A stretch of 32,192 nt of DNA, from the NCBI GenBank assembly GCA_001784175.1, contig MFPR01000005.1:1-32192 (forward strand), in the 5' to 3' direction. This document shows positions 10,994 through 32,192 of the stretch, one piece after another. Below the pieces are notes generated by a model. The model did no database searches. It saw nothing but the letters and a program-made list of their open reading frames with translations, and was not told where the DNA came from. Each line of letters opens with the position of its first letter. The stretch's first letter is position 1. Source of the stretch: Candidatus Lindowbacteria bacterium RIFCSPLOWO2_12_FULL_62_27. Its GTDB lineage: Bacteria; Lindowbacteria; 2-12-FULL-62-27. A program made the translations under genes and the position numbers.

Positions 10994-12313
10994 TCAGAAA
11001 CTGTATCGCATCCTGAAGTAGAGGTTGTCGTTCCCGTCGAGCTGGCCGAACTCGGTATGAGCGCGGCGGCCTGTGAATACGTCGGCGCCGACGACCAGTG
11101 TCCACTCGTCCGACATCTTCCATGAGAGGCACGGCCTGAGATGGGCGTCGCGGTCGGTGGGACTGTAAAAGGCGAACAGGGAGGCCTCGACGGTTTGAAA
11201 CCGGAAGAGCCGGGTCAGCCGCAGGGTCAAGACACGCCGCCGCTCGGCGCGGGGCGGATTGCCGGGCGCGGCGCTTCGTTGAAACGCGCCGAAGTTGCGC
11301 ATCCGCTCGACGTAATATTGAATCCCCACGCGCGCGTCATTCGGAAAATCGCGTTCGTATCCCGCCAGATATTTCATCGCCGAATTCTCGACGAGGCGGT
11401 CCGTGCCGCGGCGGTCGTCGATCGAATCGTACCAGCCGGCCTCAAACCAGCCGATACCGCCGAGCCGCGCCACAGGCCCGCGAATGCTTGCGCCCCATAC
11501 CGCCAGACGCGGATAAAAGAGTTCCCGGCCGCCTGAACTCACAAACCCACGCGGCTGTTTGAAAAACCCGCGGAAGGCGTACAGGGCGCACTCGGCGCTT
11601 CCATACGAGCGCGCGAGGCGCGCCGCCGCTTCCGTGTGGTCCAGGCGCGCAGCAGGCTCGATCAACACGCGCCGCGCGTCGCTCCCCGCGATCCGGCCCA
11701 ACGTGGGATCGAAGAAACTGAGGCGCTCGCCGCGCAGGGGGGCGTCGGGCGCGAAGAACGGAACGAACACAACGTCCAGGGACGCGCCCGGCCCGAACGC
11801 CGAAAATCTGGCGGCGTCGGAAGGCGCTTTGAGATATTCGTCGTCCCGGCCGATGAAGAACGAGACGAAATCTTTCGGAAACAGATCGTTGACGAACAAC
11901 AGGTCCCCCGTTCCCCACGTGAGAATCTGCCGGCCGATCTTGACGTCAAGCCACTCCGCCGGGCTGAACAGAACATGCGCTTCGCGAATCCGCATCTGGA
12001 CGCTCGATGCATTCCGGTCGCCGGCGAGATCGGACTTGGAGAACAGTTCCGCGCGCCATTTGTTTTCCCGGGCGGGCCGCCAGAGGGTTTTCAGTTGAAG
12101 GCGGGATTCGAGGAAGTTGAAGCCGGCGTGCCGGGTCTTTCCCTCGCCGCCGATCTTCGGCCCGAAGGCGGCTTCGGCGAATCCGTGGATTTCGCGGGCG
12201 TCCACGCGCGCCGCGCCCGCCGAGAACGCGGCGATGCAGGCGGCGACGAGAAACGCCCCGTCAGCGAATCCAGGACGCCGGCGGACGGCGGAGACTCCGT
12301 TCCTGAAAAACAT
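10994..12313 (-). CDS. outer-membrane beta-barrel (DUF1302-like) partner of MMPL/LolA-like proteins
   Basis: IREAHVLF, IGRQILTWGTGD, FGQLDGNDNLYFRMRYSF C-terminus, signal-like region ending ARVDA. Start uncertain. Confidence 0.75.
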   Translation of the reverse strand: MFFRNGVSAVRRRPGFADGAFLVAACIAAFSAGAARVDAREIHGFAEAAFGPKIGGEGKTRHAGFNFLESRLQLKTLWRPARENKWRAELFSKSDLAGDRNASSVQMRIREAHVLFSPAEWLDVKIGRQILTWGTGDLLFVNDLFPKDFVSFFIGRDDEYLKAPSDAARFSAFGPGASLDVVFVPFFAPDAPLRGERLSFFDPTLGRIAGSDARRVLIEPAARLDHTEAAARLARSYGSAECALYAFRGFFKQPRGFVSSGGRELFYPRLAVWGASIRGPVARLGGIGWFEAGWYDSIDDRRGTDRLVENSAMKYLAGYERDFPNDARVGIQYYVERMRNFGAFQRSAAPGNPPRAERRRVLTLRLTRLFRFQTVEASLFAFYSPTDRDAHLRPCLSWKMSDEWTLVVGADVFTGRRAHTEFGQLDGNDNLYFRMRYSF

Positions 12314-13067
12314 TGGCTGAAAGGCCGACGTCGTAGGACACGTCGCCGACGGCAATTTCGGTAAACCGCCCGTTGTCGAGGTCGGTCATCATTGCCTTCG
12401 TGATCGTCGGCGTGCCGCCGATCGTCCGGATTTCACGCGTCTCATAGATCTTGTACAGCTTCCCCTGCGGACTGTAGTGCTCGACTTTGAGCGGCAAAAA
12501 CGTCGCGGTGTCCATCCAGAACAGGCGATACGCGAACTCGGACTCGCCCGGCCGTTTCGCCGCGCTCTTCACGACAAACGCCGCGCGATCACCGATCGCT
12601 TCTTCCCGCAAAAACGCGTGGTCGTCCTCATCAATGTCGCGGCCGGAGATGTCCTCGTAGGAGAAATCGGATCCGGCGAAGCTCGTGCGCCGGTCGGCGG
12701 CGGAGATTCGTTTGACGAGGTCGAGCGCGGGCATGTAGAGCCAGCGGTCGTCGTCCCTGCCGACATGCTTGAACACCAGAAAGCTCATCCCCTGCACGTC
12801 CGGGGGCGCGAGGAAGTGGAGATAGTACGATTGTTCGCCTCCGTCTTTCAGATCGCGCCGGAGCATGACGAGCCGCCGTTTGCGTTCCTGTCCCTGCCGG
12901 TTCACGATCCGCATTGTGACCGCCATTTTCGCGTCATCGCGCGGATAGTAATACGCCAGGATCATCCGCTCCGCAATCGCGTGTCCATCCATCGGCGGCC
13001 CGGCGCTGACGCCCCCCTCGACAATGAGAACGGCCGCGAGCGCCGCAAGAATACGTTTCAGTTTCAT
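12261..13067 (-). CDS. LolA-like outer-membrane lipoprotein-sorting protein
   Basis: Signal peptide; FLAPPDVQGMSFL, DDDRWLYMPALDLVKRISA, SFAGSDFSYEDI. True start 13067 forms an ATGA overlap with the MMPL stop. Confidence 0.88.
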   Translation of the reverse strand: MKLKRILAALAAVLIVEGGVSAGPPMDGHAIAERMILAYYYPRDDAKMAVTMRIVNRQGQERKRRLVMLRRDLKDGGEQSYYLHFLAPPDVQGMSFLVFKHVGRDDDRWLYMPALDLVKRISAADRRTSFAGSDFSYEDISGRDIDEDDHAFLREEAIGDRAAFVVKSAAKRPGESEFAYRLFWMDTATFLPLKVEHYSPQGKLYKIYETREIRTIGGTPTITKAMMTDLDNGRFTEIAVGDVSYDVGLSANVFQERSLRRPPASWIR

Positions 13068-15442: not shown

Positions 15443-15462
15443 CGGCGCTCAGGGCCGCCTGC

Positions 15463-16305
15463 TCAGTCTTCAGTCGCGCCGAAGGCTAATTTGTCCGCGA
15501 TGTCGAGGATGGCGCGGGCGGCGGGATCGCCGGGCTCGGCGAGAACGAGGGGAACGCCCTTCTCCTGCGCGCGGAGAACCGCTGGGGATCGCGGCACCCG
15601 GCCGAGCAGAGGCACATGAAATCGCTCGCAGGGTTGTGAGCCGTTTCCGGCCGTCTCTTCGATGGACCGGCCGCAGTGCGGACAGACCGCGCCTGACATG
15701 TTTTCGATCCAGCCGAGAACAGGGGCGCGGAGCTGTTTGAACATCATCAGAGCTTTGATCGTTACGGACTCGGACATGGGGTCCGGGGTGGAGACGAGAA
15801 CAACGCCGGTCAGGGGCAGAAGGCCGCAGATGGAAAGATGCAAATCGCCGGTACCGGGAGGCAGATCGACGAGGAGGAGGTCGAGTTCGCCCCACATCAC
15901 ATCCCGGGCGAACTTGTTCACCGTGTCAATCACCAGCGGCGCGCGCCAGACCACCGGTTCGTCCGGATCGGCGATGGATCCCATCGAAAAAAACCGCACG
16001 TCATGCCGAACGAGGGGGCGGGGACGGCCATCCTCGATTTCCGGGACGTCATCCGAGCCGAGCAGGATCGGGGTACAGGGTCCGTGAAAATCGAGGTCCA
16101 TGAGGCCCACGCGAATTGTCCCTGTCGCCGACCGACTGGCCAATGCCGCCGCAAGATTGACGGCGACGGTCGATTTGCCGACGCCGCCCTTGCCGCCCGC
16201 CACCGCCACGATTTTCCGGACGCCCGGAATCGGCGGGGCGGCCGGCGGTGCGGCCGGTGCGGGCATTTTGATCGGGCAGGCAAACGGTTTCGATGGAGAT
16301 TGCAT
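15463..16305 (-). CDS. mrp: Mrp/NBP35 (ApbC) Fe-S cluster carrier ATPase
   Basis: GGKGGVGKST, DLDFHGP, VDLPPGTGD, IENMSGAVCPHC; start overlaps the upstream stop (TGATG). Confidence 0.92.
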   Translation of the reverse strand: MQSPSKPFACPIKMPAPAAPPAAPPIPGVRKIVAVAGGKGGVGKSTVAVNLAAALASRSATGTIRVGLMDLDFHGPCTPILLGSDDVPEIEDGRPRPLVRHDVRFFSMGSIADPDEPVVWRAPLVIDTVNKFARDVMWGELDLLLVDLPPGTGDLHLSICGLLPLTGVVLVSTPDPMSESVTIKALMMFKQLRAPVLGWIENMSGAVCPHCGRSIEETAGNGSQPCERFHVPLLGRVPRSPAVLRAQEKGVPLVLAEPGDPAARAILDIADKLAFGATED

Positions 16306-17261
16306 CAGCAGTTGCAGTCCTCCTCGGCGGAGATGTTGATTTGCGCCGACGATTTCTGGCCGTTTTCGTCCTCGATGCGCAGGATCACGACGTAGAGACC
16401 CTGCGTGAATGTGTGCTCGGCCTGCCGGCCCGCGGCCGTTGTGCCGTCGCCGAAGTCCCACTCGATCTTTTTCATCTTGCCGCTGCCGCCAGATATCAGC
16501 GCCTTGAACTGAACTTTGTAGGGCGCTGTGCCGCGTCTGGCTCGAACGCCCCCAATCCGGGCCTTCAGCGGCCCGCCGATCTTGCCCTCCTCCTCTTTCA
16601 GGAGGCTCCCGCCCAGATCGTCGGAAACTTTCGCGAGCGCCGCGCGCGTTTGGGCCGACATCGGCGTCTCAACCGCCGTGTCTCTTCCGGCTTTCCGGCT
16701 GACGGCAAGCTGTCGGCCGTCGTCGATCCGCAGTCGCTTGTAATTCACGTCGGTCACAACGCGGCCAAGAATCGTCCAGAGCGTGGCGGACCCGCCGGGC
16801 ACGGTCGGATCATAGGTGAGGGCGAATTCGGCGCCCTGACTCAAAAATTTCCACGCGCCGGCGGCGATCTGAAACTCACAGAACAGATGTTCCGGCACCT
16901 GGGCTTTGACGAACACCCGCCCTTTTTCAAGCGTGATCACCGTCCCTTCCATTTTCTTGTCAAGGTCGAACGTCACGCCTTCGAGGGAAATCCTGCCGCC
17001 CGGATAAAGACGAAAGATGCCTCCGTTGGACCACGTGAGGACGGCGGAGGATTTGTCCGCCGTTTCGATCACGTCGCCCCGCTCGATGATCTGCCCCTCT
17101 TTGGCGCTGACGGCTTTGTCGACTCCGTACTTTTTCACGGTGGCCGTCCCGTCCAGGCGCGTCAGGCGCACCACCGAGACGTCCTCAGCCGCCGACCATC
17201 CGGCGGCGGCGATCACCATCGCAATACATGCAAGACCCCGGACAAATCCGGTTCGCATCAT
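16305..17261 (-). CDS. secreted FecR-domain + PKD-domain protein with C-terminal CxC
   Basis: Signal peptide; GDVIETADKSSAVL (FecR-like); APYKVQF..WDFGDG..HTFTQGLYVVILRIED (PKD); ends EEDCNC. Confidence 0.75.
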   Translation of the reverse strand: MMRTGFVRGLACIAMVIAAAGWSAAEDVSVVRLTRLDGTATVKKYGVDKAVSAKEGQIIERGDVIETADKSSAVLTWSNGGIFRLYPGGRISLEGVTFDLDKKMEGTVITLEKGRVFVKAQVPEHLFCEFQIAAGAWKFLSQGAEFALTYDPTVPGGSATLWTILGRVVTDVNYKRLRIDDGRQLAVSRKAGRDTAVETPMSAQTRAALAKVSDDLGGSLLKEEEGKIGGPLKARIGGVRARRGTAPYKVQFKALISGGSGKMKKIEWDFGDGTTAAGRQAEHTFTQGLYVVILRIEDENGQKSSAQINISAEEDCNC

Positions 17262-17280
17262 CCATCACCTCTCAAGTTGT

Positions 17281-18852
17281 TCAGTACTTCAGCTCCGTTC
17301 CGATCACAATCTCATGGGCGCTTCTTGGATGCGCTCCCGACGGAAGGGCATAGACATCTTTGGGTCTGAAATACCCGAAATTCAGAAATCCTTCAAGCCG
17401 CTCAAGAATCGGAAACGTGGTGTTCAGGTCGAATTCCCAGCCGACCTCGTTTGTCGTGGCCGTTGATGTTGCCTGACCCCCGCTCCAGTCGCCGACCACC
17501 CCGCGGCCGCGGTATACATCCTCGGTGGTCCGGAGCAGCATAAACGACGGCGTGATGACAACCTTCTTCGCCGGCGACGCCTCCATGAATACCTTATAGA
17601 CTGTCAGGTTGGCGAGGTTCGATTCCCAGAGAAAAAATCCCGCCCGGACGTCCTCCGTAAAAATGTTTCCGAATTTTTTGCGGTCCCGGCACGTGAACAG
17701 CGCGTTGAAATCCTTGACGTCCCCGGCCGCCGGATCGGTGACTTTGTTGCCGCTGCCGCGGGCGTATTCGAGGCCGGCAACCAGACGCGCAAGGGCCGAC
17801 GATTTCAGCGGGGCGCGCGCGGAAACGAAAATGGCGTTCGCGTCGGCATTCCGGCCTCCGGCGTACGACCCGCCGAGGCGGATACCCTCGAACTCCCAGT
17901 CCACCCCGCTTGTTGTTCCCTTTCCAGCGATGCCGATCCAGAGCGGCTCGAATTCGCCGTCGCGCCTCACCGTGCCGGCGTCGAAATCCTTGTCGAGATT
18001 GAGATCGGCGTCCCCGGTGTCGCCGTTGTCCAGAACCTTGACGGCATACAGCTCCAGACGCGACATCCCCGACGGCGGGCGGACCGTGGCGCTGAAAAAA
18101 GCGCCGTTGAGGCGGTTGTCCGCCTGAAACACCTGCTGGCGGTCGCCGGCGGGCGGACCCGTCTTGCGGAAATCGGAGTAGGTATTGTACCCGCCGGAGA
18201 GGGCCGCATACCCCAGAGAAAAATTGCCGGAGCCGAACGCCGCCGATTTCATCGGGACGGAGACTTTCACCATATCCGTCGGGCCTTCCATCACGATGTC
18301 GTTTCCGAACGTCAAGTTGGTCCGGCCGATCTGCACGGCGAAGGGTCCCGTATATTGCACATATAAATCCCTGAACAGCGCATATCGCACGGTGAGGAAT
18401 TCTCCCCAGCGCTCAAGCGTTCCTTCGCCGTCCTCCTTCCAGTCGAACGTGAAATTGCCCTTGTCCATCAGGGCGACGACCTGCCAGGACTGCCAGAGGG
18501 ATTCGATCCTGAGTTGCCAGCGGTAGTCGACAAAGGCGCGGTTGTCGAATTTCCAGCGCATGCCGGCGTGGTCGAAGTTGAAGTTGTCGCGGACGTTGTA
18601 TCGGATTTTGTATTTGCCCGACAGGTCGAACTTGAATTTGCTCTCTTTCTCCTCCTCAGCCTTGGCCTCGCGGGCCTCCATCTTCCGAATTTTTGTTTCC
18701 AGCTCCGCGATGCGCCGTCGCGCCTCCTCGTCCCGCCCGGTCTGCGGCGCCGACGCCACCTCCGGCTCGGTCCATTCCTCCTGCGCAGACGCGGGATGAT
18801 TGAATAGCGCCGCCATGAGAAACCACGCCGCAAAAACGCCCGCCCATTTCAT
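17281..18852 (-). CDS. outer-membrane beta-barrel (alginate-export/porin-like)
   Basis: Signal peptide (ASA-Q), coiled coil, amphipathic strands, EYARGSG, VGWEFDL, C-terminal GTELKY. Confidence 0.7.
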   Translation of the reverse strand: MKWAGVFAAWFLMAALFNHPASAQEEWTEPEVASAPQTGRDEEARRRIAELETKIRKMEAREAKAEEEKESKFKFDLSGKYKIRYNVRDNFNFDHAGMRWKFDNRAFVDYRWQLRIESLWQSWQVVALMDKGNFTFDWKEDGEGTLERWGEFLTVRYALFRDLYVQYTGPFAVQIGRTNLTFGNDIVMEGPTDMVKVSVPMKSAAFGSGNFSLGYAALSGGYNTYSDFRKTGPPAGDRQQVFQADNRLNGAFFSATVRPPSGMSRLELYAVKVLDNGDTGDADLNLDKDFDAGTVRRDGEFEPLWIGIAGKGTTSGVDWEFEGIRLGGSYAGGRNADANAIFVSARAPLKSSALARLVAGLEYARGSGNKVTDPAAGDVKDFNALFTCRDRKKFGNIFTEDVRAGFFLWESNLANLTVYKVFMEASPAKKVVITPSFMLLRTTEDVYRGRGVVGDWSGGQATSTATTNEVGWEFDLNTTFPILERLEGFLNFGYFRPKDVYALPSGAHPRSAHEIVIGTELKY

Positions 18853-18864
18853 CGCAAATCAACC

Positions 18865-19626
18865 TTACCGCCCTACGCCGCCCAGCGAATGGCAGCTCAT
18901 GCAACGCCCCTCATCCGGCAGAGATTTCATGTATGCCACAAGCGACTCGCGCTCCTCCACCAGCATGTCAATTTTGGGCATGACCGTCCCGGGGCTGACC
19001 TCGCGCGGCTCCTTGAAGTGTTCCTCCAGCCATTTGGCGTCGCGCCGGAGGCCCACGTCGCTCAGGTTGGGGCCAACCGTGCCGCCTTCTCCGAAAACGG
19101 AGTGGCAGTTGCCGCAGCCGAATGTGGCGAACAGGAGCTGTCCCTCGGTGATTTTCGGATCGGTCCGGATGGCCCGGTTGATCATCGGCGTTTGGGCGCC
19201 GTACCAGGTCAGAACAACCACGGCCGACAGGGTCGCCATCCCCAGCGCCGTCCAGCGGGGCCGATCCCACGGATGGCGCGAGATCGTTCGATCGAGCCGT
19301 GGGACGAGAAGCAGAGCCATGACGCCGACGAGAGGCACGCCCACCGCCGCCAGCGCCTCCAATTTTCCCGGAAAGAGTTTGAGCATCTGAAACAGGAAGA
19401 GAAAATACCATTCGGGCCGGGGATTGTAGGTGGTGGAGGCCGGATCGGCCATTTCATCGAGTTCCGCGCCAAGCGTCAACGCGAGAACGAGGACGATGAC
19501 CGTCAGCGCCGCCATTGCCACCAGGTCCTTGAAGACCGCATACGGGTAGAAGGATTTCCCGCGTTCTTTGGCCTGCCGGTACTCATCAAGAATTTTCTCG
19601 CGGTCCCGGTCCATTCCGGCGCTCAT
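18865..19626 (-). CDS. qcrC: Rieske/cytochrome b complex subunit IV fused to cytochrome c (QcrC-like)
   Basis: FYPYAVFKD, PRPEWYFLFLFQ (Qo PEWY), CGNCH..GPNL..MP heme domain, extra terminal CMSCH. Confidence 0.88.
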   Translation of the reverse strand: MSAGMDRDREKILDEYRQAKERGKSFYPYAVFKDLVAMAALTVIVLVLALTLGAELDEMADPASTTYNPRPEWYFLFLFQMLKLFPGKLEALAAVGVPLVGVMALLLVPRLDRTISRHPWDRPRWTALGMATLSAVVVLTWYGAQTPMINRAIRTDPKITEGQLLFATFGCGNCHSVFGEGGTVGPNLSDVGLRRDAKWLEEHFKEPREVSPGTVMPKIDMLVEERESLVAYMKSLPDEGRCMSCHSLGGVGR

Positions 19627-20297
19627 GGCTTTCTCTCCGGCGGCGCGGATATGCCATGCCAGACGACCAGAAAGAGGTGGACGACGACGAAAATGAGAAG
19701 AAGGGCGGGAAGAAGCAAAACGTGAAATGAGTAGAACCGGGTGAGCGTTCGGGCGCCCAGCACCTCGCCGCCCTTCAACACGCTTGCCGTCGCCGGCCCG
19801 ATGAGCGGAACCTGTTCGGCCATTTCAGTGCCGACTTGCGTTGCCCAGTAGGCTTTCTGATCCCAGGGCAGAAGATAACCGGTAAAGCCGAACCCGAGGA
19901 CGATGACGAAGAGAAAGACGCCGGTCGCCCACGTCATTTCGCGCGGGTACTTGTACGCGCCCATGAAAAAAACGCGAAGAAGGTGCAGGGTGACCATGAT
20001 CACCATGAGGCTCGCCGCCCATTTGTGTACGGCGCGCAGGAGACCTCCCATGGGCGTCTGGTCGATGAACTGGATGGACGCGTAGGCGTGGTCCGGCGTG
20101 GGAGCGTAATTCATCGCCAGAAGGATTCCGGTGAAGACCTGCACGAGGAACAAAAAGAGCGTGGCGCTGCCGAAGGTATACAGCCACGAGACCCGCCCGG
20201 AAATCTCCGGGATTTTTCGATCGAGGAGCGCGGCTTTGACCCGGCGCCAACCGCAGCGCTCATCGAGTTCCTGAAGCAACGATTCGTAACGGCTCAT
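19623..20297 (-). CDS. qcrB: cytochrome b6-type N-terminal subunit (QcrB-like)
   Basis: TGILLAMNY, RAVHKW..LHLLRVF, GYLLPWDQKAYW, RFYSFH..VHLFLV with four heme-b His; true start ATG 20297. Confidence 0.92.
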   Translation of the reverse strand: MSRYESLLQELDERCGWRRVKAALLDRKIPEISGRVSWLYTFGSATLFLFLVQVFTGILLAMNYAPTPDHAYASIQFIDQTPMGGLLRAVHKWAASLMVIMVTLHLLRVFFMGAYKYPREMTWATGVFLFVIVLGFGFTGYLLPWDQKAYWATQVGTEMAEQVPLIGPATASVLKGGEVLGARTLTRFYSFHVLLLPALLLIFVVVHLFLVVWHGISAPPERKP

Positions 20298-20298
20298 G

Positions 20299-20811
20299 CT
20301 ACACCCCCGCCCTTTTCTGAGCCACCGGCATGACATGCAGGCGGCCGTCCACCAGACGCGTCGGATACCGGTCCAATGGCCTCGGCGGCGGGCCTTCCAC
20401 CACCGCGCCGGTTTTGTCAAAGACGCCCATGTGACACGGGCACAAAAATTTCTGCCGCTGGGCGTCCCAGCGGAACGGACAGCCGAGGTGCGGGCAGTGC
20501 GGGTCGAATGCCTCGAAGGCCGATTCGGCCGTCCGGACAACCCAAACCGTCGCCCGGGATTGCGCGACGATCCACCCGTCCCGTTTTCGTTTCGAGATTT
20601 CGACTCTCTGGGGAACGCCGATTTTGAAGCCGTCCACGTCTCCGACGTCCGACCAGTCCGCCTCCCGTTTTCGCAAGAGGGGCGCAGAAAAAACCGTTCC
20701 ACCCACGCCCGCGAAAACGATGGCGATGAATCCGCCCATATAGTTGATGGCGCGGACAAACCAAGACCGGCGGGTCAATTCCGCCTCTTTGGGACAGGGT
20801 TGATCGCTCAT
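20299..20811 (-). CDS. qcrA: Rieske iron-sulfur subunit (QcrA-like)
   Basis: TRRSWF Tat anchor, CPHLGC and CPCHMGVF boxes, GPPPRPL; start 20811 forms an ATGA overlap. Confidence 0.92.
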   Translation of the reverse strand: MSDQPCPKEAELTRRSWFVRAINYMGGFIAIVFAGVGGTVFSAPLLRKREADWSDVGDVDGFKIGVPQRVEISKRKRDGWIVAQSRATVWVVRTAESAFEAFDPHCPHLGCPFRWDAQRQKFLCPCHMGVFDKTGAVVEGPPPRPLDRYPTRLVDGRLHVMPVAQKRAGV

Positions 20812-21248
20812 GGGTTGCCTCCCTTGGCGAGGGGCGATCCGTAGAGCACTTTGATCTTGCTGTCCGGGCCGTGGCATTTCACGCAGACGAGTTCCTGAAG
20901 GTTCGGTTTGAAGAGATGGGGATTTCTCAGCATGACAGCCTCCGTGAATATCGGTTCGCCCTCCGACCGCCGGGGCCGAACGATGATCCTGGACATGGTC
21001 TTTTTAAACGAGTTGGGGTGCAGAACCGTTCCCTCGTTGAAGTAGCCTTCCCTCTGATCCCCATCGCCGCCGGCCATGCGAAAACCGGCGTGGCAGGTGA
21101 TGCACGAATGGTTTTCGTGATTGTAGGCCGGATTGGTCGACCGGATGTGTCGCTCGTGGAGCGGCGCCGGCGCCTTTTCTCCGCAGGCCGAGCAGAACAC
21201 CGCCACGGCGAATACGGCGCAAATCCCGGCAGGTTTTGAGAAACGCAT
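20808..21248 (-). CDS. diheme cytochrome c lipoprotein
   Basis: Lipobox-like FCSA-C, CITCH and CVKCH, extra His residues, SD GGGAGG. Confidence 0.75.
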   Translation of the reverse strand: MRFSKPAGICAVFAVAVFCSACGEKAPAPLHERHIRSTNPAYNHENHSCITCHAGFRMAGGDGDQREGYFNEGTVLHPNSFKKTMSRIIVRPRRSEGEPIFTEAVMLRNPHLFKPNLQELVCVKCHGPDSKIKVLYGSPLAKGGNP

Positions 21249-21261
21249 TCCGGATTCCTCC

Positions 21262-21939
21262 CTATCCGGCGGCGGCGCGCGCGCCGGCCAGCCGAGTCTG
21301 TTCTTCGGACATGAAATCCTCCGTCATCAGCGCCACTCCCGCATAAAAACGGGACTGGCTTTCTTTCCGGATGTATCGGCAAAGATCGAATATCCATCGG
21401 AGCAGATGTTCCTTCAGAAAATCGTTTTGAATGACCCGGCATTTCTCCACCTCGGCCGCAAGACCCCGATCCATGGCGTCAACTTCTATACCGCACAGAA
21501 ATTGCATGAACTCCATCTCCACCCCGACGTGATCCGGGTGCTCGTCGCAATTTTTTCCGAGAACCGCGCCGGCGTAGTCGTAGAAGCGTTTGACGCCGAT
21601 CGTCACCTTGCCGCCCAGACGCATCTGGGGGTCGGTGAAAACCGATTCGTGGGGGCGTATGGGCGGGCCTTTGCGGCCGAGGGGAAGAACAAAGAGGCGT
21701 GTGTATTCCGCCGTGAGATCGCGCTCCAGGCCGGGGTCAGCGGCCGATTCGTCCAGAAACGCCGCCAGTTCCGCCCGCGCGGGGGAATCGTCCGAAAGCG
21801 ACAATTCGTCCAGCAAGCGCCGGGACCGGATCAGTTCAACGATACCGGCCGGAGGCGGCTGGGAATAGACGGACGAGAGAAACACATACAGATCGGCCCG
21901 GCGGCGGGATTCGAGAGATTCCGTGGACAACTCAGCCAT
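21262..21939 (-). CDS. TorD/DmsD-family chaperone
   Basis: RADLYVFLSSVY, EYTRLF, PHESVF, HPDHVGVEMEFM, FLKEHLLRWI. Confidence 0.9.
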   Translation of the reverse strand: MAELSTESLESRRRADLYVFLSSVYSQPPPAGIVELIRSRRLLDELSLSDDSPARAELAAFLDESAADPGLERDLTAEYTRLFVLPLGRKGPPIRPHESVFTDPQMRLGGKVTIGVKRFYDYAGAVLGKNCDEHPDHVGVEMEFMQFLCGIEVDAMDRGLAAEVEKCRVIQNDFLKEHLLRWIFDLCRYIRKESQSRFYAGVALMTEDFMSEEQTRLAGARAAAG

Positions 21940-23233
21940 TGCCGGACAACACCCATCGGCGCGCCATGGCGCGGCGCTTGCGTTCCTGATTCATGCAGAG
22001 CGGACAGTAAGGATCATCCGCCTGTTTGGAAACAAACGACGCGCGGCATGCACGGCAAATCTGACGGCGGCTTTCAATGAGTTTGCGCTCTCCCGCAAAC
22101 AGTATCGCGGGGTCGGCCGTCCGCGAAATCGTTATCGCCTTCGGCAGACACGCCGCGGCACAAACGCCGCAGGCGGTGCATGATTTCGGATCAAAATACA
22201 GCTCGAAGACATTACCCGATTCTACGCGCCGGATCGCATCGGTCGGACACAAACTCTCGCAGACGTTGCATCCCATGCAGGATTGCGACACGGAAATCCC
22301 GGCGAAATTTGCCGGATTTGCCGCGGGATCGGCCGTGACCGTATTCAGAGAGATCGTGTCGGCGGGCGTTTGGGTGGTCGCCCCGTCACTGTCTCGGAGC
22401 GATTCGATAAGTTCCAGAAGATGTTGCCGGCGGGGTGACGGGATTTTCCTCAATATTCTTTCACGGAACTTCTCCCCCACGCTCTTTTCTTCCCTTGTCG
22501 CATCCGGCTCGGGCAGAATCGCGGCGGCCTGGCCGACCGCCGATTTCAAGAACGTCCGGCGGGACGACAGGGGCGCCGGCAGGCCGGCCGGCTCAGGACA
22601 AAACGGCGCGGCGACGACGGACAGGCGGTCCGGCTCAATTCCGGCAAACTTCATGACCCGCCGCGCAATCTCCACCGTTCTTTCCATGCCGGCGCCGGCG
22701 CTTCGCATCGGACAGGTTTCACACGACGGCTTCAGAATCTCCACGCGTGCCGCTCCGTGACGGAATGATTCGAGAATGACGGGAACTGTGAGGCGGCCCA
22801 GACACACGAGCACGGCATCCGCCCCCGCGGAGTGACTGCAGGAGATGTTGAGAATCCGCGGAGCCGGCGGACGGGTATCCAGCAGGCGGCGGAATTTGAG
22901 GCCCCATTGCCTGTCGGTGGCGCAAACGGCGTCGAACCCTCCGTTCAAATCGGGAGACGCCGCCCCCGACTTGAGCGAACGGCATCCCTGCCGTTCGGGG
23001 TCGGGGACGGCTGACGTCCATGTCGCCGATCCCCTCATTTCAATCGCGCCGTTCGGGCAGGCCGGCACGCAAGCTCCGCAGGCGATACAAGCGTCGCTGA
23101 CGCGCGCGCCCTCCGCGCCGATCTGGACGGCGTCGACCGGGCAGGCCCGCGCGCACAGATCGCAGTCGGATTTGGAACAGAGGTACCGGCTGCAAAGCCC
23201 CGATTCGACGGCGACCGGGATTTGCGTCAGCAT
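21932..23233 (-). CDS. polyferredoxin (multiple 4Fe-4S), molybdoenzyme-associated
   Basis: CDLCARACP, CIACGACVPACP, CMGCNVCESLCP, CTACGVCAAACL, terminal CRAC..CPLC. Confidence 0.85.
   Translation of the reverse strand: MLTQIPVAVESGLCSRYLCSKSDCDLCARACPVDAVQIGAEGARVSDACIACGACVPACPNGAIEMRGSATWTSAVPDPERQGCRSLKSGAASPDLNGGFDAVCATDRQWGLKFRRLLDTRPPAPRILNISCSHSAGADAVLVCLGRLTVPVILESFRHGAARVEILKPSCETCPMRSAGAGMERTVEIARRVMKFAGIEPDRLSVVAAPFCPEPAGLPAPLSSRRTFLKSAVGQAAAILPEPDATREEKSVGEKFRERILRKIPSPRRQHLLELIESLRDSDGATTQTPADTISLNTVTADPAANPANFAGISVSQSCMGCNVCESLCPTDAIRRVESGNVFELYFDPKSCTACGVCAAACLPKAITISRTADPAILFAGERKLIESRRQICRACRASFVSKQADDPYCPLCMNQERKRRAMARRWVLSGNG
22933..23027. repeat. second in-frame palindromic element, in the polyferredoxin gene
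   Basis: Perfect 9-4-9 hairpin 22976-22997 (GGGA loop on minus) inside outer stem 22959-22970/23000-23011; GCGACATGGACGTC at 23026-23013; shares ACGGAGGGT-n-CG with the MMPL element. Confidence 0.6.
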
Positions 23234-23237
23234 TTCA

Positions 23238-23858
23238 TCACATCGAATACATCGTGCTGGGCTTTGTGCCGCTCTCGATCGAGAGCTTCACTTCCTTCGC
23301 CCGCTTCTGCCGAATCAGCGCGGTGAGGTCGTTGACCTCGCCGAAAAACCGCGTGCGGGCAATGCAGGCCGTCACGCAGGCCGGCAGAAGCCCCTTATCA
23401 ACCCGGTGGACGCAGAGCGTGCATTTTTCCATCGTCTGCGTGTCGGCGTTGTACTGCGGCGCGCCGTAGGGACAGGCCCAGGCGCAGTACCGGCATCCGA
23501 TACATTTGTCGCCGTTGATGAGGACAATGCCGTCCTCCTCGCGTTTGGTGATCGCTCCGACCGGGCAGGCGGCCACGCACGCGGGCTTGCCGCAGTGCAT
23601 GCAGGGCATCGGCACGAAATAGACACGCATGTCCTTCGCGGGCTTCGAAGGGTCGGTGAATTCTCCCTCTTCCACGGTGATCACGCGGTTGTAATCGACG
23701 CCGACCTGCGTGTTGTTTTCAGCCTTGCAGGCCATCGAGCAGGAGTTGCACCCGACGCAGTATTCGAGATCGATCCACAGGGCGAACTGTTTCCTGCCTC
23801 GCTTCTTAAAACTGGCGTCCAGAACTTCCTGCGAAATAAACGCGCCGCGCTCAGCCAT
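23238..23858 (-). CDS. 4Fe-4S dicluster B subunit (DmsB/NrfC-like), no Tat signal
   Basis: CVGCNSCSMAC, CMHCGKPACVAACP, CIGCRYCAWACP, CTLC..PACVTAC. Confidence 0.92.
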   Translation of the reverse strand: MAERGAFISQEVLDASFKKRGRKQFALWIDLEYCVGCNSCSMACKAENNTQVGVDYNRVITVEEGEFTDPSKPAKDMRVYFVPMPCMHCGKPACVAACPVGAITKREEDGIVLINGDKCIGCRYCAWACPYGAPQYNADTQTMEKCTLCVHRVDKGLLPACVTACIARTRFFGEVNDLTALIRQKRAKEVKLSIESGTKPSTMYSM

Positions 23859-23873
23859 GTCTCATCACCCCCC

Positions 23874-26810
23874 TCAAAGTCTTTCGACGCGCAGGGGCGT
23901 GCCGTAACTCTGCGTGCCCCCGGCGACGGGATCCATCAGGATCCGGTCCTTCAGAACCGGATCGGCCATGTAGAGGGGGTTGATGTGGAACCCCGCGCCG
24001 ATGCGGTCGTCCTGATACTGCGGCTTGCCGTTCACATACCACATGCGCGCGCCGGCGCCCCAGCGGCCGTAAGACTGCGAGACGGAGAATACGCCGGGCC
24101 GGACGCGGCTGGTGACGCGGACCTGAAATTTGTACCAGCCGTCGCCGAGCGAGTTGGCGTACTCCTTCACGGGGATGCTGCTGGGCGATTTCACCCTGAC
24201 CCAGTCGCCCGTGACGACGCCGAGTTTGACGGCCTCGGCCGGATTGATCTCGGCGAAATTCTGCGGCTGAATGGACATGAGCCACAGGTTCTGGGCGGTA
24301 CGCGACTGCGTGTGCCATGCGTCCTTGTGCGTATGCAGCGCGAAGGGATACTCGGCCCAGAGTTTCGGGTCGAGCGGCTGTTCCGTGCAGTCGAAAATTC
24401 CGCGATAGGTCGGCAGGCCGTCGAAGAACGATCCGGTCATGCAGTTCTTGGTCGTCGCGACTTTTTGCTGATAGGCAAACAGCGCCCGGACCGGCCGGCC
24501 GCCCGGGAACCGGCAGTACTCGCCGTCGTATTCCTTGGTGGGATTTTCGAACTTCCCGCCCATTTTGACGAAGTCGCTGTTCGGATCGAGTCCGTCCTTG
24601 AAGTCCTCATGCTTGTAGTACTCGTTCCAGTAGTCCCAGGAGTTCATGAGGTCGATGCCGTCTCCGCCGCCGTTCTTGCCGAATCCGGGCAGACCGCACC
24701 GGATGCCGATCTCGATGAGCACATCATCGGCCATCCGCGCGTCCGGATGGACGCCCCGATACTCGTGCGTCTTCGGATCCAGCTCGCCGACGACGGGCTG
24801 GCGCAGTCCCCAGACCTGGGTGTTGACCGGCGGATAGGTTTTGAATCCGCCAAACCGCTCGAGGTACTCGGTGTCGGGCAGGATGTAGTCGGCGAGGGAC
24901 GAGGTTTCGCCCATGTAGGCGTCGATGCTGAAAAGCAGTGGGACGAGGTCGGTGTTCTTCAAGTTCTCGATGACGGGCGCGTTGTAGGGCATGGTGTAGG
25001 CCGGGTCGTTGTAGTAGTTGAGAATCGCCTTGATCTTGTACGGATACCCGTGCTTGAGGTTGGAGAGAAAATTCGGTGTGACGGTGCGCCGCGCCAGCGG
25101 ATACCAAGGCCGCGTCGGAACCGGCTTCTTGCCTTCATACTTCTTGGCGCAGTCGACCGGAACGCCTTCGGGCTTGCGAAGCGTCCCGCCGACCTTGCCC
25201 TTGTAGGCGGCGTGGCCGGGCGAAAATCCGCCGCGCCGGTCGATGTTATCGACGAGCATGTTGATGATGCATAGCGCCTGTCCATTCCACCAGCCGTTGG
25301 TCTGCTGGACAGGCCCGCGGAACATTTCGATGACGGGCGTTTTGGCCGACGTAAACTCCCTTGAGAGGCGCGCGATCGTTCCCTTGGGAATGTCGCAGAG
25401 CCTGTCGCACTCCTCAAGCGTTTTCTCCCGCGCGCGCTCTTTGAGCATCCGGAACACCGTCTTGCACGGAATGCCCTTGATCGTGACCGACGCGTCGAGA
25501 TCCGCCGGCCCTTCGGCTTCGTGAAACGCCGTGGGACTCCCTCCGGCCATGACGACATAATCGGCCTGAACCGGGAGGCCCGCTTCGGCCGCCGTCAAAT
25601 ACGTCTTCGGCTCCGTCTGCTTGACGAGGTACGTCATGTCGGTCCAGTTGCGCCGGCCGGCGGCCTTGGCCGATTTTTCGTTCGGCAGGCGCAGGTATTC
25701 CCGGTTGAATTTTTCGTTGTCGATGATCCAGCGGATCATGCCGACCAAAAAGAACGCGTCGGCCGCGGGTTTGATGGGAATCCATTCGCCCTTGCCGTTA
25801 TGAGTCGCCTTGGCCGCGCCCGACGAAAGCCACGGATCGACGACGACGTGTTTGAACTCCTTGGCGTATGGCCCCAGCCGTTTGGCCCATTTCTGGAGTT
25901 TGCGGGTGCGAAGCTGCATGGGATAATCGGCGGCGGTGATGTTGGAGCCGATGGAGATGAGGTACGAGGTGAACGGGAGATCGGCGTAGGCGCCGATTTC
26001 ATACGGGGGAAGATTCAGAACGTCTTCGATGACGTTGTAGAACGTGCCGGCGCATCTGGCGCAATGGTTCAGCATGTGCGGCACGCCGCAGACTTCCTTG
26101 ACAAAACGCGGCGTCAGGGGCGACTGCTCGTTTCGGCCGTGCATCCAGACGAACTGATTGCGTTTGGGGCCCCAGCCGGCCGGCGGCGCCTCGTCCATGT
26201 AGGCCGAATCCTCCGGGCCGAGCGGCGAGTTGTCGTTGAGGATTTTGTTCAATCCGTCGACGTGGCGTTTCTCCTCGCCGGGAACGTCCTTGAACAGGCG
26301 GCCCCCGTTCAGGATCTCCTCCATGGCCTCTTCCCACGAGATCTTTTTCCACTGGCCCGACCCGCGCGGTCCGACGCGTTTTAAGGGATGCGTGAGGCGG
26401 GCGGGATTGTAGAGCGCAAAGACGCCGGCGTTGCCTTTCGGGCAGAGCGACGCGACGTCCTTGCCGGCCGGGCCGCCGTCGAGGTCGGATTCGGCCGCGA
26501 GGTCGCCTTTGGCGGAATAGTCATAACAGTTCGGATGAAAGGGATTGCCGTCGAGCTTGATAAGCTCGCCGCCTTTGATTTTGGCCTGAAGGCCGCATCC
26601 GCCGTGGCACATGAGACAGACGCTCCGCACGATCCGGACGTCCTCGCTGATCGGATCGGGTTTGGTGCCGCGCGATCCGAGCTGGTCGCGCCATTCGGCC
26701 GCGCTCGCCGGTTTGATCCGGCCAAGCACGCCGGCCGCCGCCGTCAGAGCCGCGCTCACCTTCACGAACGACCGCCGCGTGATAGAATTTTGTGTCAGGG
26801 TTGAAATCAT
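23874..26810 (-). CDS. Tat-exported TtrA/SrdA-family molybdoenzyme catalytic subunit
   Basis: SD GGAGGAGG; TRRSFVK; SVCLMCHGGCG..DGNPFHP..long insert..LCPKG; EILNGGRLF, PWYPL, ADYILPDTEYLER, NPL..DP features as in tetrathionate reductase A family; 978 aa. Confidence 0.85.
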   Translation of the reverse strand: MISTLTQNSITRRSFVKVSAALTAAAGVLGRIKPASAAEWRDQLGSRGTKPDPISEDVRIVRSVCLMCHGGCGLQAKIKGGELIKLDGNPFHPNCYDYSAKGDLAAESDLDGGPAGKDVASLCPKGNAGVFALYNPARLTHPLKRVGPRGSGQWKKISWEEAMEEILNGGRLFKDVPGEEKRHVDGLNKILNDNSPLGPEDSAYMDEAPPAGWGPKRNQFVWMHGRNEQSPLTPRFVKEVCGVPHMLNHCARCAGTFYNVIEDVLNLPPYEIGAYADLPFTSYLISIGSNITAADYPMQLRTRKLQKWAKRLGPYAKEFKHVVVDPWLSSGAAKATHNGKGEWIPIKPAADAFFLVGMIRWIIDNEKFNREYLRLPNEKSAKAAGRRNWTDMTYLVKQTEPKTYLTAAEAGLPVQADYVVMAGGSPTAFHEAEGPADLDASVTIKGIPCKTVFRMLKERAREKTLEECDRLCDIPKGTIARLSREFTSAKTPVIEMFRGPVQQTNGWWNGQALCIINMLVDNIDRRGGFSPGHAAYKGKVGGTLRKPEGVPVDCAKKYEGKKPVPTRPWYPLARRTVTPNFLSNLKHGYPYKIKAILNYYNDPAYTMPYNAPVIENLKNTDLVPLLFSIDAYMGETSSLADYILPDTEYLERFGGFKTYPPVNTQVWGLRQPVVGELDPKTHEYRGVHPDARMADDVLIEIGIRCGLPGFGKNGGGDGIDLMNSWDYWNEYYKHEDFKDGLDPNSDFVKMGGKFENPTKEYDGEYCRFPGGRPVRALFAYQQKVATTKNCMTGSFFDGLPTYRGIFDCTEQPLDPKLWAEYPFALHTHKDAWHTQSRTAQNLWLMSIQPQNFAEINPAEAVKLGVVTGDWVRVKSPSSIPVKEYANSLGDGWYKFQVRVTSRVRPGVFSVSQSYGRWGAGARMWYVNGKPQYQDDRIGAGFHINPLYMADPVLKDRILMDPVAGGTQSYGTPLRVERL

Positions 26811-26835
26811 TTGCAGGCCTCCTCCATATTTATAT

Positions 26836-26854
26836 TTGGAACCTGGTGTTCCAA
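26836..26854. promoter_or_regulatory. inverted repeat between arsR and the A subunit
   Basis: TTGGAAC-ctggt-GTTCCAA in an AT-rich gap just upstream of the SD; operator or RNA hairpin. Confidence 0.4.
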
Positions 26855-26877
26855 TCCGCAATCTATTATCCAAAAAC

Positions 26878-27240
26878 TCACGATCTCGTTCCACCCACAA
26901 TTTGCGCCTGCTTTCGGATTCGCTCAGAGAGGATGTCCCGAATCAGGTCGAACGCCTCCAGCATGCGCGGCGCGGCCAGGCGGTAGTAAATGCGGTTCGC
27001 ATCCTTTCGGGAGAGCAGCACGCCGCGCCGTTTCATCATGAGCAGATGGGGCGATACGGTTCCAAACCCCACGCCAAGTTTTCTGGCGATCTCTTTCACG
27101 CACTCCTCCCCGTCCCGCAGCGCTCCCAGAATGCGCAGGCGCACCGGATGCGAAAAGATTTTGCACATGTCCGCATGAAGTTCGCACAGCATTTCGTCGG
27201 ACGATCGAGAAACCCCACGAACGGCTTTCCTCCTGCCCAC
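26878..27240 (-). CDS. ArsR/SmtB-family transcriptional regulator
   Basis: CELHADMCKIFSHPVRLRIL, GEECVKEIA, TVSPHL, RKDANRIYYRL; GTG 27240 after a purine-rich SD-like stretch. Confidence 0.88.
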   Translation of the reverse strand: MGRRKAVRGVSRSSDEMLCELHADMCKIFSHPVRLRILGALRDGEECVKEIARKLGVGFGTVSPHLLMMKRRGVLLSRKDANRIYYRLAAPRMLEAFDLIRDILSERIRKQAQIVGGTRS

Positions 27241-27266
27241 CTCACGCCCCCCTTCGCTTGCGAGTA

Positions 27267-27292
27267 TTCTACAGAACTCAAGAACTGTAGAA
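27267..27292. promoter_or_regulatory. 8-10-8 inverted repeat over the predicted +1, putative ArsR operator
   Basis: TTCTACAG-aactcaagaa-CTGTAGAA, directly downstream of the -12 element. Confidence 0.55.
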
Positions 27293-27298
27293 CGACAT

Positions 27299-27315
27299 TG
27301 CAAAGGGTATTCCGA
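27299..27315 (-). promoter_or_regulatory. sigma54-type -24/-12 promoter
   Basis: TCGGAATACCCTTTGCA = GG-N10-GC; 16/17 identical to 8350-8366. Confidence 0.7.
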
Positions 27316-32101: not shown

Positions 32102-32192
32102 TTATCTCACCTCCTTGTCCAGACCCTTGTAGACCAGTTTGGGCTGGGTGCCCAGATGAGGTTTCAGGACGTTGACGCGGTTTTCCTGCGAG
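32102..32192 (-). CDS. C-terminus of an NrfC/CbcT-like 4Fe-4S subunit (partial)
   Basis: Hand translation ..SQENRVNVLKPHLGTQPKLVYKGLDKEVR*, stop 1 nt before the NrfD start. Confidence 0.7.
   Translation of the reverse strand, partial: SQENRVNVLKPHLGTQPKLVYKGLDKEVR

Follow-up and report, generated by a model that had tools for sequence, protein, structure and literature searches.

A widespread unnamed clade of exported molybdenum enzymes paired with differing quinol modules, and a Rieske/cytochrome b set spliced into one of its operons in a Lindowbacteria genome

Tetrathionate reductase, TtrBCA, as described from Salmonella and Shewanella sp. ANA-3 (PMC12949373), unites a cysteine-ligated molybdenum-bis(pyranopterin guanine dinucleotide) (Mo-bisPGD) subunit, which carries an N-terminal FeS cluster and a twin-arginine translocation (TAT) signal, with a four-cluster subunit B and a direct NrfD-type anchor. 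The same study (section 3.3) characterizes true Ttr by the gene order ttrBCA, a TAT leader on both A and B, a nine-helix cofactor-less TtrC and the lack of a GR motif. In the passages that concern it, the literature (PMC10100899; PMC12949373) speaks of a broader "TtrA/SrdA/alternative ArrA" group holding members with changed substrate. Here we present a locus with affinities to this group from Candidatus Lindowbacteria bacterium RIFCSPLOWO2_12_FULL_62_27, found in a stretch of 32,192 nucleotides (nt), hereafter the window, on a contig (MFPR01000005.1) that ends at position 32192. Its centre is an operon-like unit in which a TAT-exported Mo-bisPGD catalytic subunit (A) and its electron-transfer partner (B) are encoded together with a small c-type cytochrome (c2) and a Rieske/cytochrome b complex.

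Several described systems approach this arrangement from different sides. In Thauera selenatis, as Lowe et al. are said to have described in 2010, electrons reportedly pass from a quinol–cytochrome c oxidoreductase through cytochrome c4 to SerABC. There, as is proposed for the window, a soluble periplasmic Mo enzyme that lacks a quinol-oxidizing subunit is supplied with electrons by a bc-type complex together with a c-type cytochrome; however, SerA is an Asp-ligated type II enzyme and its bc1 complex is a general one encoded elsewhere, whereas the window's complex is an extra copy within the operon. Bacillus-type QcrABC is marked by a split cytochrome b, a subunit IV fused to a cytochrome c domain and a low-potential Rieske signature, all three of which recur in the window; unlike QcrABC, the window's cytochrome b lacks the haem ci-binding cysteine (helix A reads YTFG there), and its subunit IV–cytochrome c fusion (IV-c) is 3′-truncated relative to its nearest homologues. 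Shewanella ArrAB is fed by CymA, and perchlorate-reduction islands hold a NapC-type quinol dehydrogenase, moaA and sigma-54 regulators. Relatives of our operon resemble these, in that 15 of 32 loci combine an AB pair devoid of a membrane subunit with NapC/NirT, a multihaem cytochrome, moaA and a sigma-54 two-component system, whereas in the window Rieske/b takes the place of the NapC module and ArsR that of the sensor trio. Finally, to the extent that the pertinent passages cover it, the Qcr complex of Campylobacter jejuni feeds Nap and Tor (PMC6195509), and the nap cluster of Caldithrix abyssi contains Rieske/cytochrome b genes (PMC5317091). Both illustrate a menaquinol:cytochrome c reductase driving periplasmic Mo reductases electrogenically, in Caldithrix with the genes inside the Mo cluster; by these accounts, they differ from the window, with its three-gene Qcr-like set, in having NapA-family enzymes without a B subunit and, in Caldithrix, no cytochrome c fused to subunit IV. 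As bc-type complexes feeding periplasmic Mo enzymes are thus known from Campylobacter, Thauera and Caldithrix, the principle is not new. Three points are new: a widespread enzyme clade without a name, whose core of seven genes spans the envelope; evidence of its service by three unrelated quinol modules; and one case of a truncated, laterally acquired Qcr-like set spliced into the operon.

Gene models for the window (G+C 58–64%, with abundant shadow open reading frames) were built from open reading frame lists and start-codon contexts, and domains were assigned using Pfam and NCBIfam. Fifteen co-directional minus-strand genes extend from arsR (27192) to the barrel gene bar2 (10994; Table 1). 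The spacings from A onward are, in order, 15 nt, 4 nt, an overlap of 8, 13 nt, an overlap of 4, 1 nt and an overlap of 4; from IV-c/bar1 to LolA-like/bar2 they continue with 12 nt, 19 nt, an overlap of 1, 20 nt, an overlap of 4 and an overlap of 53, the last assuming that ATG 12313 is the bar2 start. A larger gap of 67 nt separates arsR from A. These models bear out what the initial annotation had read from the DNA, namely a 15-gene unit with gaps of at most 20 nt or overlaps from A on, a haem lipoprotein (c2) and qcrABC-like genes (Rieske, cytochrome b, IV-c) following the chaperone D, and no TtrC/PsrC gene within the unit: a Pfam scan found no PF03916 (NrfD) protein between 27192 and 10994. 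The Rieske start overlaps the c2 stop by its ATGA, and cytochrome b overlaps IV-c. Logan contigs of other runs cross the c2/Rieske junction (19565-21887; 20610-22226) and the IV-c/bar1 junction (17196-20219; 18184-19553) with 0 differing letters; because both ends of the Rieske/b block are thereby bridged, the arrangement represents real DNA and not an assembly chimera. A simple consensus scan, which is weak evidence, counted 19 terminator-like sites in the window against 20.0 ± 4.5 in shuffled sequence.

Going by its sequence, A is a member of a tight unnamed clade that is sister to the Ttr group, and it would not be a true tetrathionate reductase. Among named NCBIfam models it scores best with TtrA (NF011567; 352 bits, cut-off 1750), ahead of PhsA (168 bits) and ArrA (NF041714; 71.5 bits, cut-off 1600). 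The TtrA cut-off is strict, since the Shewanella TtrA references themselves fall short of it at 1314–1418 bits, but A lies four times lower still. Its best solved relatives, Thermus PsrA and Shewanella ArrA, match over parts only. The A clade comprises at least 63 protein clusters at 57–100% identity, with 62–80% identity across phyla. We placed it in a quick-search tree of 49 rows (LG+G4, no bootstraps; the mis-framed A of locus L007 left out), the references being Shewanella ArrA (1733–1746 bits, above the cut-off), Shewanella TtrA and one Sedimenticola TtrA-like protein. With the ArrA references as outgroup, A and TtrA share one large branch, in which the 18 A-clade rows are monophyletic (Shimodaira–Hasegawa-like approximate likelihood-ratio support 100) and apart from TtrA, with five unnamed proteins (36–41% identity) as their sister. 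SrdA and the Pyrobaculum and Anaeromyxobacter sequences were not among the rows, so that the Ttr-like arsenate reductases (Pyrobaculum, Anaeromyxobacter PSR-1, Melioribacter) and SrdBCA are compared by description: they belong to the same broad group and keep the GR motif but are, in the passages devoted to them, described with membrane C subunits.

The active site offers a further mark of the clade. The Mo-ligand cysteine of ArrA (HSSVC) aligns with the second cysteine of NHCARC in A (NHCARCAGT in full), whereas the Shewanella TtrA references read HGSYCG. The pattern H-C-x-R-C-[AS]-G-T is found in 47 of the 63 clade members, the other 16, which include the short clusters P0049-P0063, being unmatched; in most of the more distant relatives (P0064-P0120) the site reads H-[TW]-x-[IV]-C-E or H-T-T-V-C-Q. 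A reads HGR where the Shewanella TtrA references have NAG; as a marker for arsenic this GR motif had to be rejected, as the window's second, Psr/Phs-like catalytic subunit (A2) has it too. Hence, the unit departs from true Ttr in four respects: the order A-B, a B (starting MAERGAFISQ) devoid of a twin-arginine leader or signal peptide of its own, the absence of TtrC and the presence of GR, and its electrons would arrive via cytochromes rather than directly from an NrfD anchor. In Sedimenticola hydrogenitrophicus a near-canonical TtrA (1255 bits) coexists with an A-clade gene (296 bits); therefore the two are not redundant. The label "Ttr-family" given to A at the outset thus stands only in a broad sense, and gives way to a separate clade that lacks the hallmarks of Ttr. 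The portion of Wells et al. 2023 on this family reports a "seemingly novel lineage" sister to TtrA/SrdA/alternative ArrA, which may be the A clade. A limited open-access text search found no paper on the A clade, its gene core or the link to Rieske/b.

We then compared gene order, by tblastn with defined queries, in 32 genome loci (L006–L037) whose A is 65–70% identical to that of the window. They share a core, A-B-Fd-D-c2-bar1-FecR/PKD, all seven members of which are present in the window with Rieske, cytochrome b and IV-c inserted after c2. The polyferredoxin Fd is matched in every locus, the barrel bar1 and the FecR/PKD gene in 30 (the other two being short contigs) and c2 in 26. What differs is the apparent connection to the quinone pool. 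A c554-like multihaem cytochrome gene directly follows FecR/PKD in 18 loci, and a NapC/NirT tetrahaem quinol dehydrogenase is encoded in 15, often with moaA next (12 loci). Four (Nitrospirota, Rokubacteria) instead have a c7-like cytochrome–FeS–NrfD module directly upstream of A, and one, L010, has FeS and NrfD genes after c554, whereas 12 have none of these modules within the DNA examined. Taken together, these contexts suggest that the AB-c2 core is a soluble module tied to the quinone pool by differing quinone:cytochrome c devices in each lineage. The idea that AB is fed by cytochrome c, first raised for the window, hence fits the entire clade, whose members pair AB-c2 with NapC/NirT and c554 or with cytochrome–FeS–NrfD. 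The accompanying claim, that the complex stands in for an NrfD anchor, holds for the operon, where no NrfD gene abuts B, but not necessarily for the cell: NrfD modules occur in 4 to 5 relatives, and the NrfD encoded upstream in the window is 47% identical to that of L010.

By their titles, the records of these loci belong to Nitrospirota, Rokubacteria, Planctomycetota and Beta- and Gammaproteobacteria, two cultured Sedimenticola strains among them, and the source names of A-clade clusters add Alphaproteobacteria, Armatimonadota and Thermodesulfobacteriota. Two Nitrospirota loci (L013 13176-16815; L036 14989-18767) have a second B-A pair directly after FecR/PKD, its A being 29–30% identical to that of the window. 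The A of L035, a metagenome-assembled genome (MAG) labelled Nitrospirae (RBG_16_64_22), is near-identical to that of L010, a Muproteobacteria MAG (end branches 0.03–0.04 in the tree), which suggests a recent transfer or a binning error.

The Rieske/b6/IV-c complex appears complete, carrying all its cofactor motifs: CPHLGC and CPCHMGVF in the Rieske protein, with cluster ligands and disulfide cysteines present; the four histidines of cytochrome b that ligate haems bL and bH in helices B and D, spaced H-x13-H and H-x14-H (HKWAASLMVIMVTLH and HVLLLPALLLIFVVVH); and in IV-c the Qo-site PEWY (NPRPEWYF) with one full CxxCH domain. On NCBIfam, cytochrome b scores below the cut-offs of both the cytochrome b6 (238 bits) and ExtP (229 bits) models. 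Aligned to a 412-aa homologue from locus L058, IV-c begins a second cytochrome c domain but is cut off 7 residues past that domain's CxxCH; two CxxCH motifs are seen in 33 of 48 complete homologues, which are mostly 320–370 amino acids (aa) long. This truncation, 12 nt from bar1, matches what is expected of a recombination breakpoint; the flanks of the insert showed only short repeat matches at chance level and no insertion scar. The host genome has four cytochrome b loci, and each of three other genomes of the phylum has three, matching three of the host's. The operon's cytochrome b is at most 53% identical to any locus of these four genomes, and its best paralogue within the host is 49.5% identical, which rules against a recent duplicate of a native gene. 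It is, therefore, an extra fourth copy, which supports a complex dedicated to the operon. Rieske, cytochrome b and IV-c were found in none of the 32 related A loci; conversely, among the 79 nearest cytochrome b relatives on metagenome contigs (identity of 67% or less) the Rieske-b-IV-c trio is almost always preserved, but none of them has an A-clade gene nearby. Synteny elsewhere, on which the initial annotation had made its proposal depend, is thus absent from both directions, and with 0 of 32 the wiring is to be seen as a swapped-in module of this window and no family trait. The nearest cytochrome b relative (67%) resides in a large cytochrome supercluster (L058 5607-20655), with a multihaem-cytochrome b561 fusion, NapC-like and c3-like cytochromes and a Rieske-b-IV set fused to three cytochrome c domains, followed by a Qrc/ACIII-like set of c7, molybdopterin-like, FeS and NrfD proteins.

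The host belongs to a phylum of which the collection searched contains only four species-level genomes, all from a single family; the other three (completeness 81–91%) yielded no A. It has two MqnA/D hits above cut-off but no UbiH-type hydroxylase and no MenD above cut-off; its quinone is therefore likely to be menaquinone made by the futalosine route. It also encodes two haem-copper oxidases and six Mo-bisPGD proteins, with no DsrA above cut-off. In high-potential Rieske proteins working with ubiquinol or plastoquinol, a serine and a tyrosine raise the potential; the box II of the operon's protein, CPCHMGVF, has neither. As a menaquinol-type complex needs only a moderately positive acceptor, a very high-potential oxyanion such as selenate, as supposed earlier, is not required.

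The neighbourhoods of the related operons hint at the substrate in more than one direction. On the arsenic side, two ArsR genes flank the window's operon, and 20 of the 32 loci encode a sensor kinase and sigma-54 regulator, joined in 16 by a PhnD-like binding protein. A trio of solute-binding protein, kinase and regulator is the layout of AioXSR/ArxXSR/ArrTSR, and in Melioribacter such a trio and arsR lie near the Ttr-like arsenate reductase (PMC5492636, in the sections on these genes). Yet the trio's binding protein comes closest to the phosphite-binding PtxB (95 bits), ahead of ArrX (62 bits) and AioX (32 bits). On the selenium/sulphur side stand ArsR-rhodanese fusions in 8 loci and DsrE in 5. 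Further, a conserved type II Mo enzyme resembling SerABDC/ClrABDC follows the cluster in 7 loci (L006, L019, L022, L031, L032, L034, L037), with copies 84–100% identical to that of L006; it recurs in Sedimenticola selenatireducens (L159), a selenate respirer with two copies of the operon. Source annotations call it chlorate reductase or dimethyl sulfide dehydrogenase; perchlorate reductase was rejected, PcrA reaching only 508 bits. In both Sedimenticola genomes it lies 17–18 kb from A, as an alpha-beta-delta-gamma operon with an EB_dh-type gamma, divergent from a trio of PhnD-like binding protein, kinase and sigma-54 regulator and near a methyltransferase, a Cys/Met pyridoxal phosphate (PLP) enzyme and a redoxin. 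The Lindowbacteria genome has no orthologue of this enzyme or of the relatives' NapC. We would rank a selenium or sulphur oxyanion first as substrate, followed by arsenic or antimony.

We give about even credence to the following account: the window holds a laterally acquired respiratory operon in which electrons flow from menaquinol through Rieske/b to cytochrome c, c2, B and A, to reduce a chalcogen or metalloid oxyanion. By analogy with their families, A (Mo-bisPGD and one FeS cluster) would be exported by the TAT route with B (four FeS clusters) riding along; D would serve as the TorD-like chaperone for TAT proofreading and cofactor insertion, probably helped by Fd as a maturation factor and by the Mrp Fe-S carrier. 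Menaquinol would be oxidized by the operon's own Rieske/b6 complex in a Q-cycle, so that proton-motive force is conserved, and electrons would move from the Rieske centre into IV-c at its one intact cytochrome c domain, then to c2, B and the Mo site of A. The anionic substrate might enter by bar1, a putative porin of the AlgE type, while the FecR/PKD protein and the MMPL-LolA-barrel trio would be accessory envelope parts that may handle a poorly soluble product. Co-transcription, the order of carriers, the direction of flow and the substrate are all steps that we infer.

Several observations weigh against this account. Co-transcription is read from gene spacing, and the listed holders of the stretch include no RNA run; of the 33 A-clade loci examined, a single one shows the link to Rieske/b, which therefore does not qualify as a conserved partnership and might be a recent acquisition, still unrefined; the truncation of IV-c and the loss from c2 of one haem motif out of three might mean that the chain is impaired and not adapted; and the substrate hints conflict between arsenic and selenium/sulphur types. 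The two haem-copper oxidases make an oxidase role feeding cytochrome c feasible, and pairs of c554 with NapC/NirT also run oxidatively in ammonia oxidizers. Flow might hence be reversed, with A oxidizing a reduced oxyanion or sulphur compound (arsenite, antimonite, thiosulfate or sulfite-like), B passing electrons by c2 and cytochrome c to the oxidases, and Rieske/b running backwards to refill menaquinol and NAD(P)H for autotrophy, as is thought of the petI bc1 complex of Acidithiobacillus ferrooxidans. Many hosts of the clade are, by their record titles, of lithoautotroph type (Sulfuritalea, Sulfurisoma, Sedimenticola, Hydrogenophilales, Muproteobacteria, Nitrospira), the c554-like and NapC/NirT genes of 15 of the 32 loci mirror the c554/cM552 pair that feeds quinone in ammonia oxidizers, and the sensor trio resembles AioXSR/ArxXSR of arsenite oxidizers. 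We nonetheless regard the oxidase as somewhat unlikely and prefer the reductase, at the even credence given above, because each of the three module types is chiefly known as a classic electron donor for reductases of the periplasm, because a Crp/FNR-type regulator gene follows the cluster in both Sedimenticola genomes, and because uphill transfer to menaquinone (about -74 mV) via a low-potential Rieske protein would be costly; the type II neighbour in 7 of 32 loci, too, has the Ser/Clr/Ddh architecture of what are mostly reductases.

The missing conservation of the link (0 of 32 A-clade loci and 0 of the 79 nearest cytochrome b loci) would suit a Rieske/b set that is a co-transcribed passenger, or a shared hub for a general cytochrome c pool that includes the second Mo operon (6969-2439), without specific docking to c2 or AB: the same Rieske/b/IV-c family turns up in mixed cytochrome superclusters (L058) and near other Mo enzymes (L123 and L128, with B-NrfD-A2-like genes upstream), and the window's second operon, B2-A2-D2-c554, is likewise without NrfD. 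We think this doubtful, for the insertion fits precisely into the space from c2 to bar1, overlapping the former by 4 nt and leaving 12 nt before the latter. Its being an extra copy beside three native cytochrome b loci argues for a purpose tied to the operon; besides, a hub would still send electrons to AB and would differ in specificity, not in route. The NrfD and NapC/NirT-like pair 3.5 kb upstream (32100-29342), apparently similar to the module beside the A operon in L010, poses another challenge as a possible alternative quinol module. Were it the link to AB, its FeS partner would lie beyond the contig end and the in-operon Rieske/b would be secondary or inactive. The NrfD of L010 stands after c554 and an FeS gene beside its A operon, four further clade loci have NrfD modules, and the truncation of IV-c would fit, but a PIN/antitoxin pair and a 370-aa gene intervene before arsR, and with the NrfD upstream of A in L008 that of the window shares only 19% identity, which led us to reject it as a member of that Nitrospirota family. 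Moreover, a 96% identical NrfD lies on another contig of the host (C8, 8917-10134) among other neighbours, whereas A-clade genes were found on the window's contig only, so the module is not tied to AB, and this link to AB is rather improbable. Least probable of all is a divergent tetrathionate reductase that lost TtrC: no named family scores higher than TtrA (352 bits), the tetrathionate/thiosulfate potential (about +198 mV) would suit feeding by cytochromes and many hosts of the clade are sulphur oxidizers, yet that score is far under the cut-off, the clade is separate, the gene order, the leaderless B, the missing nine-helix TtrC and the GR motif all contradict it, and S. hydrogenitrophicus keeps both genes side by side.

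If the reductase reading is followed further, a more specific and rather speculative proposal, to which we attach a minor share of credence, is that the A clade is the missing dissimilatory reductase of Gram-negatives for selenite (or another chalcogen oxyanion), acting on the step after a SerABDC-like selenate reductase, with both in a single regulated island. It draws on the presence of the type II enzyme and oxyanion sensor trio beside or within 18 kb of the A operon (S. selenatireducens; 7 of 32 loci), on the nearby rhodanese, DsrE, Cys/Met PLP enzyme and methyltransferase, and on the clade-specific second cysteine beside the Mo ligand in A. Were it true, the oxyanion would come in through the AlgE-type porin, and disposal of the hydrophobic elemental product would fall to the MMPL-LolA-barrel trio. 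The window would then show that the module can be detached from NapC and joined, in an organism using menaquinone, to a Rieske/b complex that builds proton-motive force, a natural experiment on conservable energy. More generally, the A clade is a widespread Mo enzyme system lacking a name, with cultured hosts that make bench work possible. One AB-cytochrome module with three devices (NapC/NirT, NrfD-FeS-cytochrome and Rieske/b) would be a clean instance of modular respiratory evolution and would allow the energy yield of a single terminal reaction to be compared among them. A dedicated, laterally acquired Rieske/b complex in a Mo-enzyme operon is rare, the Caldithrix nap cluster being the sole genomic precedent in the literature searched, and it bears on when Q-cycle coupling pays for anaerobic acceptors. 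Should the enzyme be an ordinary reductase with a passenger complex, the finding would shrink to a useful annotation.

Whereas c2 in the window has 2 CxxCH motifs, 26 of 28 homologues examined have 3; a profile search found no solved relative of c2, and a complex prediction of B with c2 (score 0.00, partner fold uncertain, no controls) speaks neither for nor against their contact. The barrel bar1 has an Atlas feature score of 0.98, and its predicted structure resembles PF13372 clusters at template-modelling (TM) scores of 0.67–0.70, which by that tool's terms is a lead; no Pfam family, PF13372 included, matched it at E ≤ 0.01. Its likeness to alginate-export anion channels fits anion uptake. 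The Mrp gene was detected by tblastn in none of the 32 related loci and thus occurs in the window operon only, while MMPL, LolA-like and bar2 genes lie near A in 5, 5 and 7 of them, respectively.

Table 1. Genes of the 15-gene unit and of the neighbouring modules in the window, with the matches behind each assignment (E-values and bit scores from Pfam and NCBIfam).
Feature	Coordinates	Strand	Evidence
arsR, ArsR/SmtB-family regulator, 104 aa from ATG 27192	26878..27192	-	Pfam HTH_5 3.9e-10; NCBIfam HTH_metalloreg 69.2 bits, cut-off 55
A, TAT-exported Mo/W-bisPGD catalytic subunit, 978 aa	23874..26810	-	TAT signal RRSFVK (PF10518), Fe4S4 and molybdopterin domains
B, four-cluster [4Fe-4S] electron-transfer subunit, 206 aa, 16 Cys	23238..23858	-	Fer4_11 2.2e-30; DmsB and TtrB models below cut-off
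Fd, cytoplasmic polyferredoxin, 433 aa, two 2x[4Fe-4S] modules flanking an MvhD/FlpD-like domain	21932..23233	-	Fer4 and FlpD matches
D, TorD/NarJ-type chaperone	21262..21939	-	PF02613 9.2e-25
c2, small c-type cytochrome lipoprotein, 146 aa, 2 CxxCH	20808..21248	-	sequence; no Pfam family
Rieske [2Fe-2S] subunit, 170 aa, RR-containing N-terminal anchor	20299..20811	-	PF00355 1.7e-11; start context GGGAGG
Cytochrome b, b6-type N-terminal half, 224 aa	19623..20297	-	PF00033 3.1e-51 (174 bits)
IV-c, subunit IV fused to one cytochrome c domain, 253 aa	18865..19626	-	PF00032 and PF00034
bar1, putative AlgE-type outer-membrane beta-barrel, 523 aa, coiled coil near N-terminus	17281..18852	-	no Pfam match; Atlas features and predicted structure
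Secreted FecR/PKD protein, 318 aa	16305..17261	-	PKD_4 3.4e-12, FecR 3.1e-4
Mrp/ApbC/NUBPL-type Fe-S cluster carrier ATPase, 280 aa	15463..16305	-	PF10609 6e-72
MMPL/HAE3-type resistance-nodulation-division (RND) transporter, 792 aa	13064..15442	-	PF03176 3.6e-24; TIGR00921 167 bits, below cut-off
LolA-like periplasmic carrier, 268 aa	12261..13067	-	PF17131 3.2e-55
bar2, last gene of the unit, putative outer-membrane barrel of 439 aa with a faint likeness to DUF1302	10994..12313	-	PF06980 8.5e-4, below cut-off
NrfD, outside the unit	30877..32100	-	TtrC model 36.7 bits, cut-off 314
Membrane-anchored NapC/NirT-like cytochrome, 512 aa, six CxxCH, outside the unit	29342..30880	-	48% identical to the cytochrome after NrfD on contig C8
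Second Mo operon, B2-A2-D2-c554	6969-2439	-	TtrB/DsrO-like FeS protein, 278 aa; A2 Psr/Phs/Srr-like, 812 aa; TorD-like; c554-like multihaem cytochrome

Beyond the unit, the window's contig and C8 both end just upstream of NrfD, and therefore a repeat probably broke the assembly there. On C8 the cytochrome that follows NrfD is 48% identical to its counterpart in the window, and the downstream genes differ in the part examined. Between the NrfD/NapC-like genes and the 370-aa gene, which encodes a secreted protein without a family, lies a toxin–antitoxin-like pair on the minus strand (29463-28644), consisting of an RHH/DUF6364 antitoxin-like gene and a PIN-domain gene. At the other end of the window, the second Mo operon is preceded by a faintly OprO/P-like porin gene (8228-7095, minus strand). 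A2 scores 381 bits with the PhsA model, below its cut-off; a membrane subunit of the NrfD type is missing from this operon as well, so its electrons may come from the same pool of cytochromes. Promoter-like sites in the window were not above the shuffled level by consensus scan; the sole one on the minus strand, a sigma-70-like match at 10981-10953, lies just past bar2 and just upstream of a second ArsR-family gene. The latter opens a minus-strand stretch (10925-9361) and encodes a 134-aa regulator with a Cys-Cys pair near its N-terminus and DLCVGDL in a helix; it is followed by a gene for an MtrA-like protein of 386 aa, which includes the pterin-binding domain DUF4346 (460 bits with PRK00964.1-6, under the cut-off).

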